Part shown: positions 1 through 6,396 of the stretch, in pieces | Layout of the letters: every line of letters begins with the position of its first letter | Numbering within the stretch: position 1 is the stretch's first letter | Source of the DNA: a virus | Lineage: Duplodnaviria > Heunggongvirae > Uroviricota > Caudoviricetes | IMG/VR virus record: IMGVR_UViG_2690316166_000011 | DNA length: 6,396 nucleotides | Direction: 5' to 3' (one strand) | The notes under the pieces: model-generated | Database searches by the model: none | Seen by the model: only the letters and a program-made list of their open reading frames with translations | What the model was told of the DNA's origin: nothing | Translations under genes and position numbers: made by a program

Positions 1-2105
<2,105 letters not shown>

Positions 2106-2113
<8 letters not shown>

Positions 2114-2510
2114 CTCTCTGTTTCCTTACTCTGTAATATGTTCCCTCTGTTGGTTTTGGTTGAAGTTCGAAACCATCATGATCAGCATTTACTCCAAGTA
2201 CCCGACCAGATGCCACTACTGCCATAATTAATGGGTTGTCAGGATCTAACCAGATATCACCGTCTATAGTGGCTTGTACTGGCTTACAGTACGCTTCAAC
2301 AATTTCCCCTGTATGGTTCCATCCTTCCTTGTTTAAACCTGCTATACCTTCTTTAATGCTCGAATACTGGCGATTAGTTAACTGTGTAGTACCATTAATT
2401 AAATCAATAAGGCGTAGTACTATAATGTTGCAATCGTTATCACCATACTTATATGGGTTATCAATTGAGTACTGAATAATACTCATTACTTCATTATGTA
2501 GATTTTTCAT
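2106..2510 (-). CDS. Small NlpC/P60-like tail protein (lambda gpK C-terminal-domain-like)
   Basis: 134-aa ORF at the gpK position, between the L-like and J-like genes. The motif GDNDCNIIV resembles the Cys-containing catalytic motif of NlpC/P60 peptidases (lambda gpK GVTDCYTLF), and GDIWL resembles gpK GDVLL. There is no JAMM/MPN HxH motif. The catalytic His is not clearly conserved. Start TAATG overlaps the upstream stop at 2508-2512. Confidence 0.4.
2123..2127 (-). promoter_or_regulatory. Shine-Dalgarno site (AAGGA) for the J-like tail tip gene
   Basis: Minus-strand sequence cagagtAAGGAaacagagagATG, with a 9-nt spacer to ATG 2113-2111. It lies inside the 3' end of the upstream gpK-like gene, consistent with translational coupling. 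Confidence 0.45.
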
Positions 2511-3133
2511 TACTTGTATTTCCAGTTCTGATTTTGATTAACTTGACCTAACAGACTAAAGTACTCATCATTTCTATAGTAAGATTGATATACTGAGTTG
2601 GCGGCAATTAATGCAGGTTGTCTGTCTAATTTCTTATAGACAGAATTCACATATATAGTCATTTCGTTTTGCTTCTGATTTGGATCAGTTACTGCCTGTA
2701 CATAGTCAATAAACCCCGTAAACATGAGCATTGAATCAATTACAGTACTATCATATGGATTGAGAATTACTAACTTGATATTCATCTGTGCATCTTTCAA
2801 GAAACCACCAAGGGCAAGAGCACGAACCGAGGCGTTTACATTGCTAATTTTAAAATTGATAGCATCATTAGACATGCCCTTTTGTTCAGAATATGAAGGT
2901 AATGAACCACTGATAATGTCGGGGAAACTTATGTACTTATAACCATCCAGATCTATATCAATTAGTGAATCCGTCCAGTGAAAACCATTAGTACCTTTTG
3001 GTAGTACATCAAAACAAGTAACATTAACGCCTAAGCTCATAATTTCCATTAGTGTTAATCTTGTCTTGGTTGTACCTCTGACTAACTTCCAGTACTTAAG
3101 AAGATTAGCATTAGTATATATACCTGAGTCCAT
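2510..3133 (-). CDS. Minor tail protein L-like (lambda gpL / GTA g13-like)
   Basis: 207-aa ORF whose start overlaps the Dit stop (TAATG at 3131-3135). From memory, the segment YKYISFPDIISGSLPSYSEQKGMSNDAINFKISNVNASVRALALGG resembles the lambda gpL region YQPYPIQGSGFELNGKGTSTRPTLTVSNLYGMVTGMAEDMQSLVGG. It lacks the C-terminal Cys cluster of lambda gpL. Confidence 0.5.
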   Translation of the reverse strand: MDSGIYTNANLLKYWKLVRGTTKTRLTLMEIMSLGVNVTCFDVLPKGTNGFHWTDSLIDIDLDGYKYISFPDIISGSLPSYSEQKGMSNDAINFKISNVNASVRALALGGFLKDAQMNIKLVILNPYDSTVIDSMLMFTGFIDYVQAVTDPNQKQNEMTIYVNSVYKKLDRQPALIAANSVYQSYYRNDEYFSLLGQVNQNQNWKYK

Positions 3134-3690
3134 TAGATGATATTCTCCGTTGCTTTCAATGTAATATTCATGATGTTCCCAATAGGCAATGAATAATCAT
3201 TGTCTGGATCTAATACAGCCTCGATCATGAGATTGTTATATTTGAGTGCTTCACTTGCCTGTACTGTATTTTGTAGAGCAGGGAAAATAGTAATTGAAGT
3301 ACTGGTACGTTCTACGATTCGATATAGCTTATTGTGATTGGAAAACTGTACCCACTCACCCACAGCTAATGTGTTAGTACTGATAGGTACAACCATATTA
3401 CCCGGTTTAGTGAGAGCAGTAGCGGTTACTGCACCAGTCTGTTTACCGTAATATGTACCTGCAAGCCCCAATGACATAGTGAAAGGTTTGCCCTGTGCAT
3501 ATTGAGCTAAAAAGCTATTCACTTCATTTAGTGATGCAGGATTAAAATTAAGGGTGAACTGAATTTGATAGTATTGAATTCCAGTACTTCTCATGATACG
3601 TTGACCTGTCCATGTTTGATTAGAATAGATCGGTTCAGTACTTTTAATTTGAAAGTTCGTTACTTTTATTTGATTTGAAAAGGATGCCAT
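3133..3690 (-). CDS. Distal tail protein-like (lambda gpM / Dit-like) minor tail protein
   Basis: 185-aa ORF that is the first complete tail gene after the tape measure gene on the same strand. It has a canonical SD (GAGG at 3698-3701, 7-nt spacer) before ATG 3690-3688, and a Dit-typical size. Family assignment is by position and size, not a computed alignment. Confidence 0.5.
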   Translation of the reverse strand: MASFSNQIKVTNFQIKSTEPIYSNQTWTGQRIMRSTGIQYYQIQFTLNFNPASLNEVNSFLAQYAQGKPFTMSLGLAGTYYGKQTGAVTATALTKPGNMVVPISTNTLAVGEWVQFSNHNKLYRIVERTSTSITIFPALQNTVQASEALKYNNLMIEAVLDPDNDYSLPIGNIMNITLKATENII

Positions 3691-3691
3691 T

Positions 3692-4264
3692 TTGTTACCT
3701 CGAATATCTTCTTTCTTTATTTATTTAAAAACCTCGATTCGTATTTTTTTTAACAGGCTTGATTGGCAGGCTGCATCCGTCATCGTTGCTATGTTGTTAT
3801 TTGCAGGCCAAATAGGCTATAACGCATATGATAAATGGAAAGAAAGTTCAGATGATGTTTTTAAGATGCGTGTAATCTTATTGAGCGAAATCAACAATAA
3901 CCTTTTAGCTCTTGCTACTGGTGGCGATGAGTCTCAGGTGTTAGGCACATATGAAATATGTATTCCTCTTCCAACTGAAGATACAGAAGCTATTAAAAGA
4001 GTAGCAACTGCCGTTTCTTATTTGCATGATGATGTATATTATTCCCAATTAGAAAAATTAGCATCACTCCCAAAAAAAGAAGTAGATGCCATCGTAAAGA
4101 GTTATTATTCATTATCGAGATTACGTACTCTTTCAACACAGCTTGCATACAATATTAAATACTCACCACCTAAAGTTAAATTATTGCGGGAAGAGTATTA
4201 CAATCTCTATACCCTTTCATCTTCTCTTTCACAATATTTGTCTTATCACACGGAAAATCCCTAA
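3692..4264 (+). CDS. Hypothetical protein with N-terminal hydrophobic membrane anchor; opposite-strand moron between tape measure and Dit genes; function unknown
   Basis: Open frame of 190 codons in AT-rich DNA, exactly filling the only gap in the minus-strand operon. The maximal ORF starts at TTG 3692, with AGGA at 3681-3684 giving a 7-nt spacer. An in-frame ATG at 3791 (codon 34) gives a 157-aa product starting MLLFAGQIGY, and another in-frame ATG lies at 3866. The hydrophobic stretch AASVIVAMLLFAGQIGY is followed by a charged, probably helical soluble region. There is no lipobox Cys and no nuclease or other catalytic motif I recognise. Stop TAA at 4262-4264. Confidence 0.6.
   Translation: MLPRISSFFIYLKTSIRIFFNRLDWQAASVIVAMLLFAGQIGYNAYDKWKESSDDVFKMRVILLSEINNNLLALATGGDESQVLGTYEICIPLPTEDTEAIKRVATAVSYLHDDVYYSQLEKLASLPKKEVDAIVKSYYSLSRLRTLSTQLAYNIKYSPPKVKLLREEYYNLYTLSSSLSQYLSYHTENP
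3698..3701 (-). promoter_or_regulatory. Shine-Dalgarno site (GAGG) for the Dit-like gene
   Basis: Minus-strand sequence aagatattcGAGGtaacaaaATG, with a 7-nt spacer to the start codon at 3690-3688. Confidence 0.55.
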
Positions 4265-4274
4265 CTGGGCTTTC

Positions 4275-6396
4275 TTATGTATTACGTTTTTGACTACTTC
4301 TCACAGCTTGAGAAACACTATTGGCGTGTTTCTTAAGCATCTCATTAAATTTCTTGTCATCATCAGCTACATCACCCTGGATGATCAATGGTGCGTTAAC
4401 GGTAATATCACCTGAAGTACTTCCACCTTCTTGTTTATCCAAGAATGCTGTTAATTTCTTATTCGCTTCAGGCTGCACCACTCTCTCGCCCTGCTTAAGT
4501 ACAAATGATTTGTTGTCATAACTTGCTGGTAGTTCATCTACCCCGCCATGGAACTGACCAGCAGCAGCACCCTTTGCAGTACTAATAATCGACATACCAA
4601 GTGAAAGTACTTGTGCATAGTTTGCCAATGAAGCTGGCCAAGGGGTAGCGAGTGCTTGGGCCAATGCTGACTGAATTGAAAGTACTGTCTGTGCAATGCT
4701 TATGCTCTTACTTAGGGTAAATGCAGCTTGTGCAGCCCCACTACTTTCCCCAAACGCATCAACCATGCCCTGTGATAGTGACTGTGCAGTACTTGAGAAG
4801 ATACTTAACTGATCCTGTGCATTCTGGTTACTGATTTGGATGGCCTGTGCATTGTACTTTGCCGTGATCTCAGCTTTACGTTTCTCATAGTCCTCATGGC
4901 CTTTCAGCAACAACTCATTCTGCTGAAGTTCAGCATTCATAGCATCAGCGTTATCTTTCAACTTCTGATCGGTATCGTTATAGGCTAATGGATTACCACC
5001 ATTGATACGCTGATTCTGTTGCTGTGCCAGATACCCCTTCTGATTGTCATTGAGTAGACCGGAACCAATAAGAGCATTGGTATCTTTCAGACCCTGATTA
5101 GGATCTTGATAACCAACCATTGAATTCAGTAAATCAGTACGTTGTTTAGCACCATATGCAGTAGCGTTCTTTAGCATTTCATCAGGATTGATACCGAGTA
5201 CTTGAGCACTATCGGTGATGGTTTTAAGAAGTGCCTTTTGTTGTCTGTCGAACTGCTGTAGACGTACCTGAAAACCATCTTCCCCAACTTGAGCAAGAGC
5301 AGCTTCCAGATTACGTTGAGCCTGTAGGCGTTTTGCATCTGCCGCCTTTTGTGCCGCTTCTGCCTGTTTACGTTGTTGTTCTAACTTCTTCGCTGCATCT
5401 TCAGCTTCTTTTGCCTGATCANNNNNNNNNNNNNNNNNNNNNNNNNNNNNNNNNNNNNNNNNNNNNNNNNNNNNNNNNNNNNNNNNNNNNNNNNNNNNNN
5501 NNNNNNNNNNNNNNNNNNNNNNNNNNNNNNNNNNNNNNNNNNNNNNNNNNNNNNNNNNNNNNNNNNNNNNNNNNNNNNNNNNNNNNNNNNNNNNNNNNNN
5601 NNNNNNNNNNNNNNNNNNNNNNNNNNNNNNNNNNNNNNNNNNNNNNNNNNNNNNNNNNNNNNNNNNNNNGTACGTAATTTTTCCCAGATATCCAACATAT
5701 CCTGTAGAGAACCCTTGGAAGTTTTAATACGTTCATTCAGATCTTCAAACAAACCTGCCTCGTGAGGTTTTTGATTTGCAGCATCATAGACACTGTTCAT
5801 GGCATTAACTAAAGGTGATAGGCCATCAGCAATAGTACCTTTAATGCTGGTAGTAAGTTTCCCAAGGTTTTTATCGAATTCAGCATATTTTTCAGCAGCA
5901 TCATTAGTTACTTCAGCATTTTGTGACTGGATATAGGCTGTAGCTTGAGCCTCATTATTGAACTGCTGAAGAGTACTAATCATGTGGCTTGAGTCACTGG
6001 CTAACGTTTCCATTACGTTAACTATTTCACTCTGTGATTTACCTGCATCACGCATGGCGTAAAAGGTGTGGATCACAGCCTGCATACCACCATCAGCCTG
6101 TTTTAAGTACTTGTTATAGTCCTGTAGGTTGAGTCCATATTCTTTAAGATCATCGGATACACCACCGCCAGCACGAAAAGCATCACCGAGCTTATCCAAG
6201 GTATCCTTGTTGAAATCACCAAACTTATCAATCTCAAGACCGAGGCCACTAAACGCCGCTGATAGCTGTTGTAACTGAACCACGGACAATCCGGTACTCT
6301 TACTGATCTGGTTCATTTCACGCACATATTCACGTGATGATTCTACTAATGCTGCCAGGCCACCAATACCAATAGCCGCAGCACCCGCGATCCCGG
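4275..6396 (-). CDS. Tape measure protein, C-terminal portion (5' end beyond right window edge; interrupted by N-gap 5422-5669)
   Basis: Minus-strand frame is open from the right window edge (hand translation of 6326-6396 gives GIAGAAAIGIGGLAALVESSREYVRE upstream of the listed Met at 6325). Left of the gap, the frame of ORF 4275-5177 stays open up to 5421 (hand translation gives DQAKEAEDAAKKLEQQRKQAEAAQKAADAKRLQAQRNLEAALAQ). The protein has A/Q/K/E-rich coiled-coil character followed by a long hydrophobic Ala/Ser/Leu-rich segment, and sits immediately upstream of the tail-tip genes. The two ORF-track pieces (5381-6325 and 4275-5177) are in different frames only because of the N-run. Confidence 0.75.
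5422..5669. other. N-run (assembly gap or masked sequence), 248 nt, inside the tape measure gene
   Basis: Run of n characters. The tape measure reading frame differs on the two sides. Confidence 0.95.

Follow-up and report, generated by a model that had tools for sequence, protein, structure and literature searches.

A probable reverse-oriented moron whose start signals interleave with those of a distal tail protein gene in an uncharacterised lineage of enterobacterial siphoviruses

Some exclusion proteins that are membrane-anchored or lipoproteins have their genes next to those for tail or receptor-binding proteins, among them the T5 protein Llp and the lactococcal protein Sie2009. Cor of phages phi80 and N15 and SieA of phage P22 are also exclusion proteins (PMC3594210). 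In the definition of Juhala and Hendrix, a moron is extra DNA present in some phages and missing from close relatives at the same site, with an own promoter, an own terminator, a distinct GC content and expression from the repressed prophage as further criteria (PMC3594210). One moron product, gp15 of phage HK97, is an inner-membrane protein that blocks DNA entry, and its gene lies beside that of the tape measure protein (TMP) (Cumby et al., 2012, reviewed in PMC3594210). In P2-like phages, the fun(Z) site is one of three known moron regions (PMC6823313). P2 itself has there, on the opposite strand and flanked by an operon terminator and the pF promoter, a gene for a 528-residue product that blocks phage T5. 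Here, we analyse a 6,396-nucleotide (nt) stretch of viral DNA (Caudoviricetes; IMG/VR record IMGVR_UViG_2690316166_000011), referred to as the window. Its minus strand is a siphovirus tail module, and its sole sizeable plus-strand open reading frame (ORF), 3692-4264, nearly fills the 584 nt from the TMP stop to the start of the gene for the distal tail protein (Dit). In our judgement this cargo gene is probably a reverse-oriented moron in a TMP-Dit hotspot, translated from the TTG at 3692 with initiation signals interleaved with those of Dit, and specifying a bitopic membrane protein (Table 1).

The junction between TMP and Dit was surveyed in thirty-five IMG/VR loci (L022-L056) encoding relatives of this Dit. 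In approximately 20 loci the junction is empty, with 31-130 nt from the TMP stop to the Dit ATG and no cargo gene. The same interval measures 583-587 nt in six loci that carry a relative of the window gene, a member of the PHROG 3829 family (L022-L024, L026, L032 and L037). A second cargo type encodes a DUF6216 membrane protein of 208-217 amino acids (aa) within a gap of 659-673 nt (L025, L035, L048 and L049; Pfam E-value 1e-23), and a third encodes a DUF726 alpha/beta-hydrolase of 260-280 aa within a gap of 886-966 nt (L027-L029 and L051; Pfam E-value 4e-12). The three cargo types are mutually unrelated, and all are encoded on the strand opposite to the tail genes. Exchange is visible even between close relatives, as the TMP and Dit of L025 are 97% and 96% identical to those of the window, yet this locus carries the DUF6216 cargo. 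By the Juhala and Hendrix definition, the PHROG 3829 insert is extra DNA at a site that is otherwise only 31-130 nt wide. The first-pass annotation had called the ORF a moron, and the label is borne out by the many relatives without an insert at this junction and the others with unrelated cargo there. This comparison across loci shows the TMP-Dit junction to be a cargo hotspot of an uncharacterised temperate siphovirus lineage of Enterobacteriaceae. Neither INPHARED phages nor complete E. coli genomes yielded a match in megablast and tblastn searches, whether queried with the region or the protein, and the lineage is missing among deposited phages except for one Dit match at 33% identity.

At the Dit end of the insert, 3680-3701 holds both initiation regions, interleaved on opposite strands, with the Shine-Dalgarno (SD) sequence of each gene lying within the first codons of the other. 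All coordinates that the first-pass annotation gave for this head-to-head arrangement are correct when read directly in the sequence. The arrangement is beyond chance, as judged from its recurrence in nine of nine distinct homologous loci (the window, L002, L005, L012/L018, L017, L006, L019/L037, L020/L032 and L026). In all nine, the frame is open for 190-192 codons from the position equivalent to 3692 (a 191-aa ORF in L026), and in eight of them the first 99 nt contain 1-6 stops in the other two frames. The codon at this position is TTG in six loci, GTG in L017 and ATG in L026, and in L020/L032 the TTG has changed to TTA and the next codon to ATG, a shift of one codon. The 3692 position is the only in-frame canonical start common to all loci, and the window has no further canonical in-frame start before codon 34. 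Loci with an empty junction or with other cargo show no conserved start codon at the equivalent position.

The signals on both strands appear to constrain one another. The cargo SD AAGGA is invariant in all 8 aligned loci, including two prophage remnants in which Dit is dead, and the Dit SD is present in all loci with an intact Dit. Synonymous divergence (pS) is 0.058 in Dit codons 2-10 and 0.15 in codons 2-15, versus 0.43-0.69 elsewhere in Dit, and this is consistent with an overlapping cargo SD, 5′ untranslated region or promoter. The reduction across Dit codons 2-15 (window positions 3646-3687) is 3- to 10-fold relative to the rest of the gene. The two remnants are chromosomal, one in Citrobacter cronae (L002, 7400-8900) and one in Enterobacter sp. 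(L005, 7580-8820). Of TMP and Dit, both remnants keep only frameshifted fragments, whereas their 190-codon cargo gene is intact. The Dit frame of L002 is broken by a 1-nt insertion just before AAGGA, so placed that neither this SD nor its distance to the TTG is altered. In L005, whose Dit is a pseudogene, the Dit SD has changed from CCTC to TTTC, which turns Pro3 of the cargo protein into Phe. From these substitutions, Pro3 appears to be fixed by the Dit SD for as long as Dit lives, and the cargo signals appear to outlast Dit. When the remnant cargo genes are compared with their intact relatives, the ratio of nonsynonymous to synonymous divergence (pN/pS) over the whole gene is 0.14-0.21. Judged by this substitution pattern, the cargo gene is shown to be selectively retained in decayed prophages. 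The Citrobacter remnant adjoins modABC/gal genes and was read on 17 contigs.

The Dit leader itself belongs to the phage backbone. An ATAAATA core occurs in 29 of 32 distinct Dit-upstream sequences, whether the junction is empty or holds any of the cargo types, at -29 to -34 from the Dit ATG in 22 and at -42 to -44 in seven. The window has the motif in cargo codons 9-12 (F-I-Y-L). By alignment with cargo-free relatives, the first ~13 cargo codons are overprinted on this leader, which is backbone sequence common to those relatives, and the overprinting probably explains the missing third-position bias in these codons. The other cargo types keep their distance. The DUF6216 gene starts at an ATG just past the ATAAATA motif, 35-36 nt from the Dit ATG (L025 and L049), the DUF726 gene starts 63-68 nt from it, and only the PHROG 3829 family consistently reads across the motif and the Dit SD right to the Dit ATG. 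Empty junctions have a fixed order in the direction of the tail genes, with the TMP stop followed by a GC-rich hairpin and T-run, the (T)ATAAATAC motif, the SD and the Dit ATG, a layout that suggests a terminator-promoter boundary between TMP and Dit. The (T)ATAAATAC motif resembles a T4-type late promoter or a -10 box. From its position, we infer that ATAAATA is a candidate -10-like or leader element for Dit. The motif was also considered as a recurrent phage-wide late promoter and rejected, as its overall count is about that expected by chance in AT-rich DNA and only its fixed position before Dit is notable. Position 1 of four Shigella sonnei contigs (L008-L011) corresponds to window position 3723, and position 1 of a Klebsiella pneumoniae contig (L007) is a break of the same kind. 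These short-read contigs are independent, and all break in or just past the ATAAATA motif, within the cargo N-terminus. Branching of the assembly graph at the boundary between cargo and backbone, for example from a second related prophage with other cargo in that genome, would fit these breaks, and a drop in coverage in the AT-rich stretch is the alternative.

With its start beside that of Dit, the cargo gene cannot have a promoter in an intergenic region. Divergent promoters, of which the first-pass annotation had spoken, are impossible in such a region in this arrangement, and the moron promoter must fall within the Dit coding sequence. A scan of 3300-4600 for plus-strand sigma-70-like promoters found none, in agreement with the earlier reading by eye, which had seen no convincing sigma70-type promoter. 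One weak candidate, at 3574-3602 in the Dit coding sequence, has the top upstream position weight matrix (PWM) score and is present in all 8 loci, both remnants included. It is absent from the output of the promoter scan, a score as high turns up in 24% of shuffles, and it overlaps codons for a conserved stretch of Dit, which leaves it as no more than a lead. The Enterobacter remnant L005 has decayed less between about -200 and +700 than it has farther upstream. Past the other end of the gene, a hairpin at 4306-4338 is a candidate weak terminator for the cargo transcript and could end that transcript while sparing the tail transcript. Its inner stem is conserved across loci in a region that is also coding, and it has no clean T-run. 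The homologous hairpin of L006 was flagged as terminator-like, and the terminator scan of the window found none. RNA structure around the cargo 5′ end was also considered and set aside, as the fold is unremarkable (z 0.48).

The window protein matches PHROG 3829, a family of unknown function, with an E-value of 1e-5, and nine of ten aligned family members do so, the best at 6.5e-27. Relatives are few, with five clusters at 90% identity and 11 clusters among 1.8 billion 50%-identity representatives. A more remote homolog is a 197-aa "hypothetical protein" of P2-like phages (hhalign probability 99.2% to the phage D8 member). The product is predicted to be bitopic, with a cationic tail of ~25 residues, a single transmembrane (TM) helix at residues 27-45 and a four-helix bundle of ~145 residues. 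In three homologs, the highest Kyte-Doolittle score over 19 residues, 1.52-1.92, falls at residues 27-46, and the net charge of residues 1-24 is +3 or +4. The AlphaFold2 (AF2) model, with a predicted local distance difference test (pLDDT) score of 83, shows a helix at 6-22, a continuous helix at 25-75 and three more long helices. By the positive-inside rule, the N-terminal tail would be cytoplasmic and the bundle periplasmic. A second TM segment in residues 1-24 was rejected, as their hydropathy (0.0-0.9) falls short of what a membrane span needs and no other part of the protein is less conserved. In place of the two hydrophobic N-terminal segments that the first-pass annotation had raised as a possibility, the long start gives one TM helix and a cationic non-membrane tail. 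The window protein has no Pfam match at E ≤ 0.1, and neither it nor three of four scanned homologs has a match in PADLOC-DB 2.0 at E ≤ 1; the fourth homolog, P0008, has two weak PADLOC-DB matches at E-values of about 0.005. Pfam and PADLOC matches of other family members are weak and sub-threshold. Searches of the PDB by sequence and fold returned nothing past a generic four-helix bundle, a fold that also occurs in periplasmic sensor domains.

A role in exclusion or defence is suggested by analogy with HK97 gp15, one of the known exclusion proteins whose membrane topology the cargo protein resembles. In this scheme, a promoter within the 5′ part of the Dit coding sequence would drive the cargo in the repressed prophage, and the host would gain, most likely because the product excludes superinfecting phages or acts against phages at the envelope in some other way. 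Indirect support for such expression comes from the intact cargo genes (pN/pS 0.14-0.21) of remnants with decayed tail genes. Late transcription of the tail genes, which runs antisense to the cargo, would then shut it off. The cargo protein is 45-57% identical between phages whose TMP C-terminus is ~85% and whose Dit is 72-80% identical, and by these identities the cargo is shown to diverge faster than its flanks (72-86%). Together with retention in remnants, the swappable site and a family member at the P2 fun(Z) site, this rapid divergence is circumstantially typical of anti-phage cargo. It is possible, though we lean clearly against it, that translation starts at 3692 and the protein instead has another envelope function, such as stress tolerance, virulence or colicin resistance, or a role in the lytic cycle. 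Morons have diverse roles (PMC3594210), the protein has no homology to known defence or exclusion proteins, and its fold is a generic four-helix bundle. Intact copies in remnants incapable of forming virions argue against a lytic-cycle role, and the faster divergence, the site shared with alternative cargo and the fun(Z) relative all speak, circumstantially, for defence.

A bolder extension, which we regard as doubtful, is that the interleaved, perfectly complementary initiation regions form a built-in switch and that the cargo is an unrecognised class of exclusion factor. Under this proposal, a lysogen would contain only the cargo mRNA, which would be translated. On induction, Dit-directed transcription would begin at the ATAAATA motif in cargo codons 9-12, or arrive by read-through from TMP, and would collide and base-pair with the cargo 5′ end and silence it. 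The TM-anchored periplasmic four-helix bundle would act on the TMP/Dit-mediated DNA entry of phages with the same tail type. If true, this would account for the placement of PHROG 3829 and of two further membrane-associated families of cargo precisely between TMP and Dit.

The start codon can be weighed with more assurance. Translation from ATG 3791 (Met34) or later, which would leave a 100-nt AT-rich divergent intergenic region and a 157-aa product, is in our view improbable. An ATG initiates more strongly than a TTG, Met34 is invariant in close homologs, and one public annotation gives the homolog from Dryocola 159 aa, from an ATG two codons upstream of the 3791 equivalent. The first-pass annotation had described an AT-rich stretch of about 100 bp before this codon with no obvious SD, and both observations hold, as 3691-3790 is 100 nt with 65% A+T and no SD precedes 3791. 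The codons within this stretch argue against its being intergenic. Codons 23-33, upstream of ATG 3791, evolve as protein, with pN/pS of 0.08, variable columns of 3/0/9 by codon position, and four synonymous codons across loci for each of Ala27 and Ser29. Within subgroups, codons 3-22 have pN/pS of 0.38-0.42 in frame 0 versus 0.6-2.2 in the other frames. Met34 also lies inside the sole TM helix, so that the short form would lose its membrane anchor, and the start codon at 3692 is actively maintained. All remote homologs have an N-terminal tail and then a conserved sequence, W-[QE]-A-x-S-V-I...A-M, at which the TM segment begins, and homologs down to 23% identity keep the order of N-tail, TM helix and helical domain. 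Taken together, the upstream coding signature, the kept start, the SD and the protein architecture support translation from TTG 3692 using AAGGA at 3680-3684. The first-pass annotation had left the choice between the two starts open and had named alignment of homologous loci as one way to settle it; the nine loci favour the overlapping start. Secondary internal initiation may make a minor contribution. Public annotation is inconsistent on this point, with some homologs given as 190 aa, one as 159 aa and two further entries as partials at contig ends, and the comparison of homologs shows the full 190-aa form to be the real one, the short call dropping half of the predicted membrane anchor. That the ORF is a chance antisense open frame in an untranslated tail-operon spacer, with no protein made, is very improbable. 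Such a reading would fit the promoter and terminator scans without a match, the lack of a Pfam family and the scarcity of homologs (11 clusters among 1.8 billion representatives), but it is already contradicted by the substitution pattern (whole-gene pN/pS 0.14-0.21), by the 190-codon frame kept open in nine diverged sequences, by the PHROG 3829 match, by a confident AF2 model and by the mere 31-130 nt that ORF-free relatives have at the junction.

Several points weigh against a moron that starts at TTG 3692. The GC content of the cargo (34.4%) is no different from that of the adjacent tail genes (36.9% in Dit and 34.6% in the next tail gene; 42-43% in TMP), and the distinct GC content listed among the moron criteria is not seen here. 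Across the two subgroups, codons 3-22 have no coding signature, with pN/pS of 1.17 and variable columns of 11/12/12; saturation together with the dual constraint from the Dit leader may account for the missing signal. There is no convincing plus-strand promoter, given the empty scan of 3300-4600 and a best PWM candidate within the shuffle background, and no canonical intrinsic terminator, the only structure being a hairpin that lacks a clean T-run. No match in Pfam, PADLOC or the PDB directly supports a function. Finally, L048, with unrelated DUF6216 cargo, is also open up to the Dit ATG, so that an open frame in a single sequence proves little. The L048 frame (~2349-3002, minus strand of the locus) is open to an ATG that overlaps the Dit ATG in a CATG palindrome. 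L025 and L049, with the same cargo type, have a stop codon where the L048 frame is open, and the CATG overlap of L048 recurs in L026, which carries PHROG 3829 cargo.

The remaining genes of the window are consistent with a siphovirus tail module. Dit has homology to its family, its alignment to PHROG 1302 beginning at residue 2, and it lies downstream of TMP, which it directly follows in cargo-free relatives; against the Pfam pb9 B-domain its E-value is 0.0025, under the curated cut-off. The stop codons of TMP and the cargo gene lie 10 nt apart. Masked sequence, given as runs of N, occupies 158-223, 405-452 and 5422-5669, and the third run splits TMP into two listed ORFs, 4275-5177 and 5381-6325. 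The homologous loci have one TMP of ~737 aa. Rfam returned nothing in the window at E ≤ 1.

Table 1. Features of the window around the TMP-Dit junction (CDS, coding sequence; MFE, minimum free energy).
Feature	Coordinates	Strand	Details
Cargo ("moron") CDS	3692-4264	+	190 codons, TTG start; PHROG 3829; predicted bitopic membrane protein
Cargo start codon TTG	3692-3694	+	a single base (3691) separates TTG from the Dit ATG
Cargo Shine-Dalgarno AAGGA	3680-3684	+	7-nt spacer to TTG; within Dit codons 3-4 (TCC TTT)
Dit start codon ATG (CAT on plus strand)	3688-3690	-	intact loci all begin MASFSNQIK
Dit Shine-Dalgarno GAGG (CCTC on plus strand)	3698-3701	-	7 nt before Dit ATG; within cargo codons 3-4 (CCT CGA)
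Backbone motif AATAAATAA (lineage consensus TATAAATAC)	3717-3725	-	~30 nt upstream of Dit ATG
Single TM helix (predicted)	3770-3826	+	residues 27-45, AASVIVAMLLFAGQIGYNA
Internal ATG (Met34)	3791-3793	+	codon 34 of 190-codon ORF; mid-TM helix; rejected alternative start
Weak candidate cargo promoter	3574-3602	+	TTGAAT (3574-3579), 17 nt, TGaTACGTT (3594-3602); Dit codons 30-39
13-bp hairpin	4306-4338	+	42 nt past cargo stop, within TMP 3′ coding sequence; MFE -21.9 kcal/mol, z -3.33
Dit (distal tail protein, T5 pb9-like)	3133-3690	-	185 aa; PHROG 1302 "distal tail protein", E 8e-17
TMP (tape measure protein), C-terminal part	4275-5177	-	PHROG 13674 "tail length tape measure protein", E 2e-36
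Tail protein, 207 aa	2510-3133	-	
DUF6950 protein	2106-2510	-	
Tail-tip protein	122-2113	-	

The hotspot is newly identified, in a widespread and uncharacterised enterobacterial prophage lineage, and it holds at least three uncharacterised families (PHROG 3829, DUF6216 and DUF726). The window offers a natural example of the 5′ end of a cargo gene overprinted on the leader of its neighbour, which bears on the way in which morons can be built into late operons and leave them intact.

Set against the described systems, the cargo resembles Llp, Cor, SieA and Sie2009 in general plan, as all are proteins of ~60-200 aa whose genes lie in or beside the tail module and which combine a membrane anchor at the N-terminus with a domain outside the cytoplasm, a topology that is predicted for the cargo; it differs from them in having no detectable similarity of sequence or fold. 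The likeness to HK97 gp15 is closer in genomic terms. Both are small cargo genes beside TMP in a siphovirus tail cluster, gp15 is an inner-membrane protein and the cargo product is predicted to be one, and both genes are missing from related phages and have homologs outside intact prophages. The gp15 gene differs in encoding 62 aa, in lying on the same strand as the tail genes and in having an annotated terminator, whereas the present gene encodes 190 aa, lies on the opposite strand and on the other side of TMP, and has its initiation interleaved with that of Dit. Homology to HK97 gp15/YebO was considered and rejected (hhalign probability 0.9%; no Pfam match at E ≤ 0.1). The P2 fun(Z) site likewise holds swappable cargo between two late tail gene blocks, and its layout mirrors the order of hairpin and motif in the empty TMP-Dit junctions. 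P2 Fun(Z) itself, at 528 aa, is of a very different size from the 190-aa cargo protein. A remote member of the PHROG 3829 family occupies the fun(Z) site in phages D8, 12W and P24B2, among others; in Escherichia phage D8 (L021 3480-4073; OM475426 15457-16050) it lies between gpG and gpFI. These P2-like members differ in lying on the same strand as the tail genes, in having a shorter N-tail and in not overlapping the start of a neighbour. In kind, then, the window gene is a known and fairly ordinary thing, a tail-operon moron, from a protein family and a phage lineage that are both uncharacterised, and its overprinting on the Dit leader is unusually tight.

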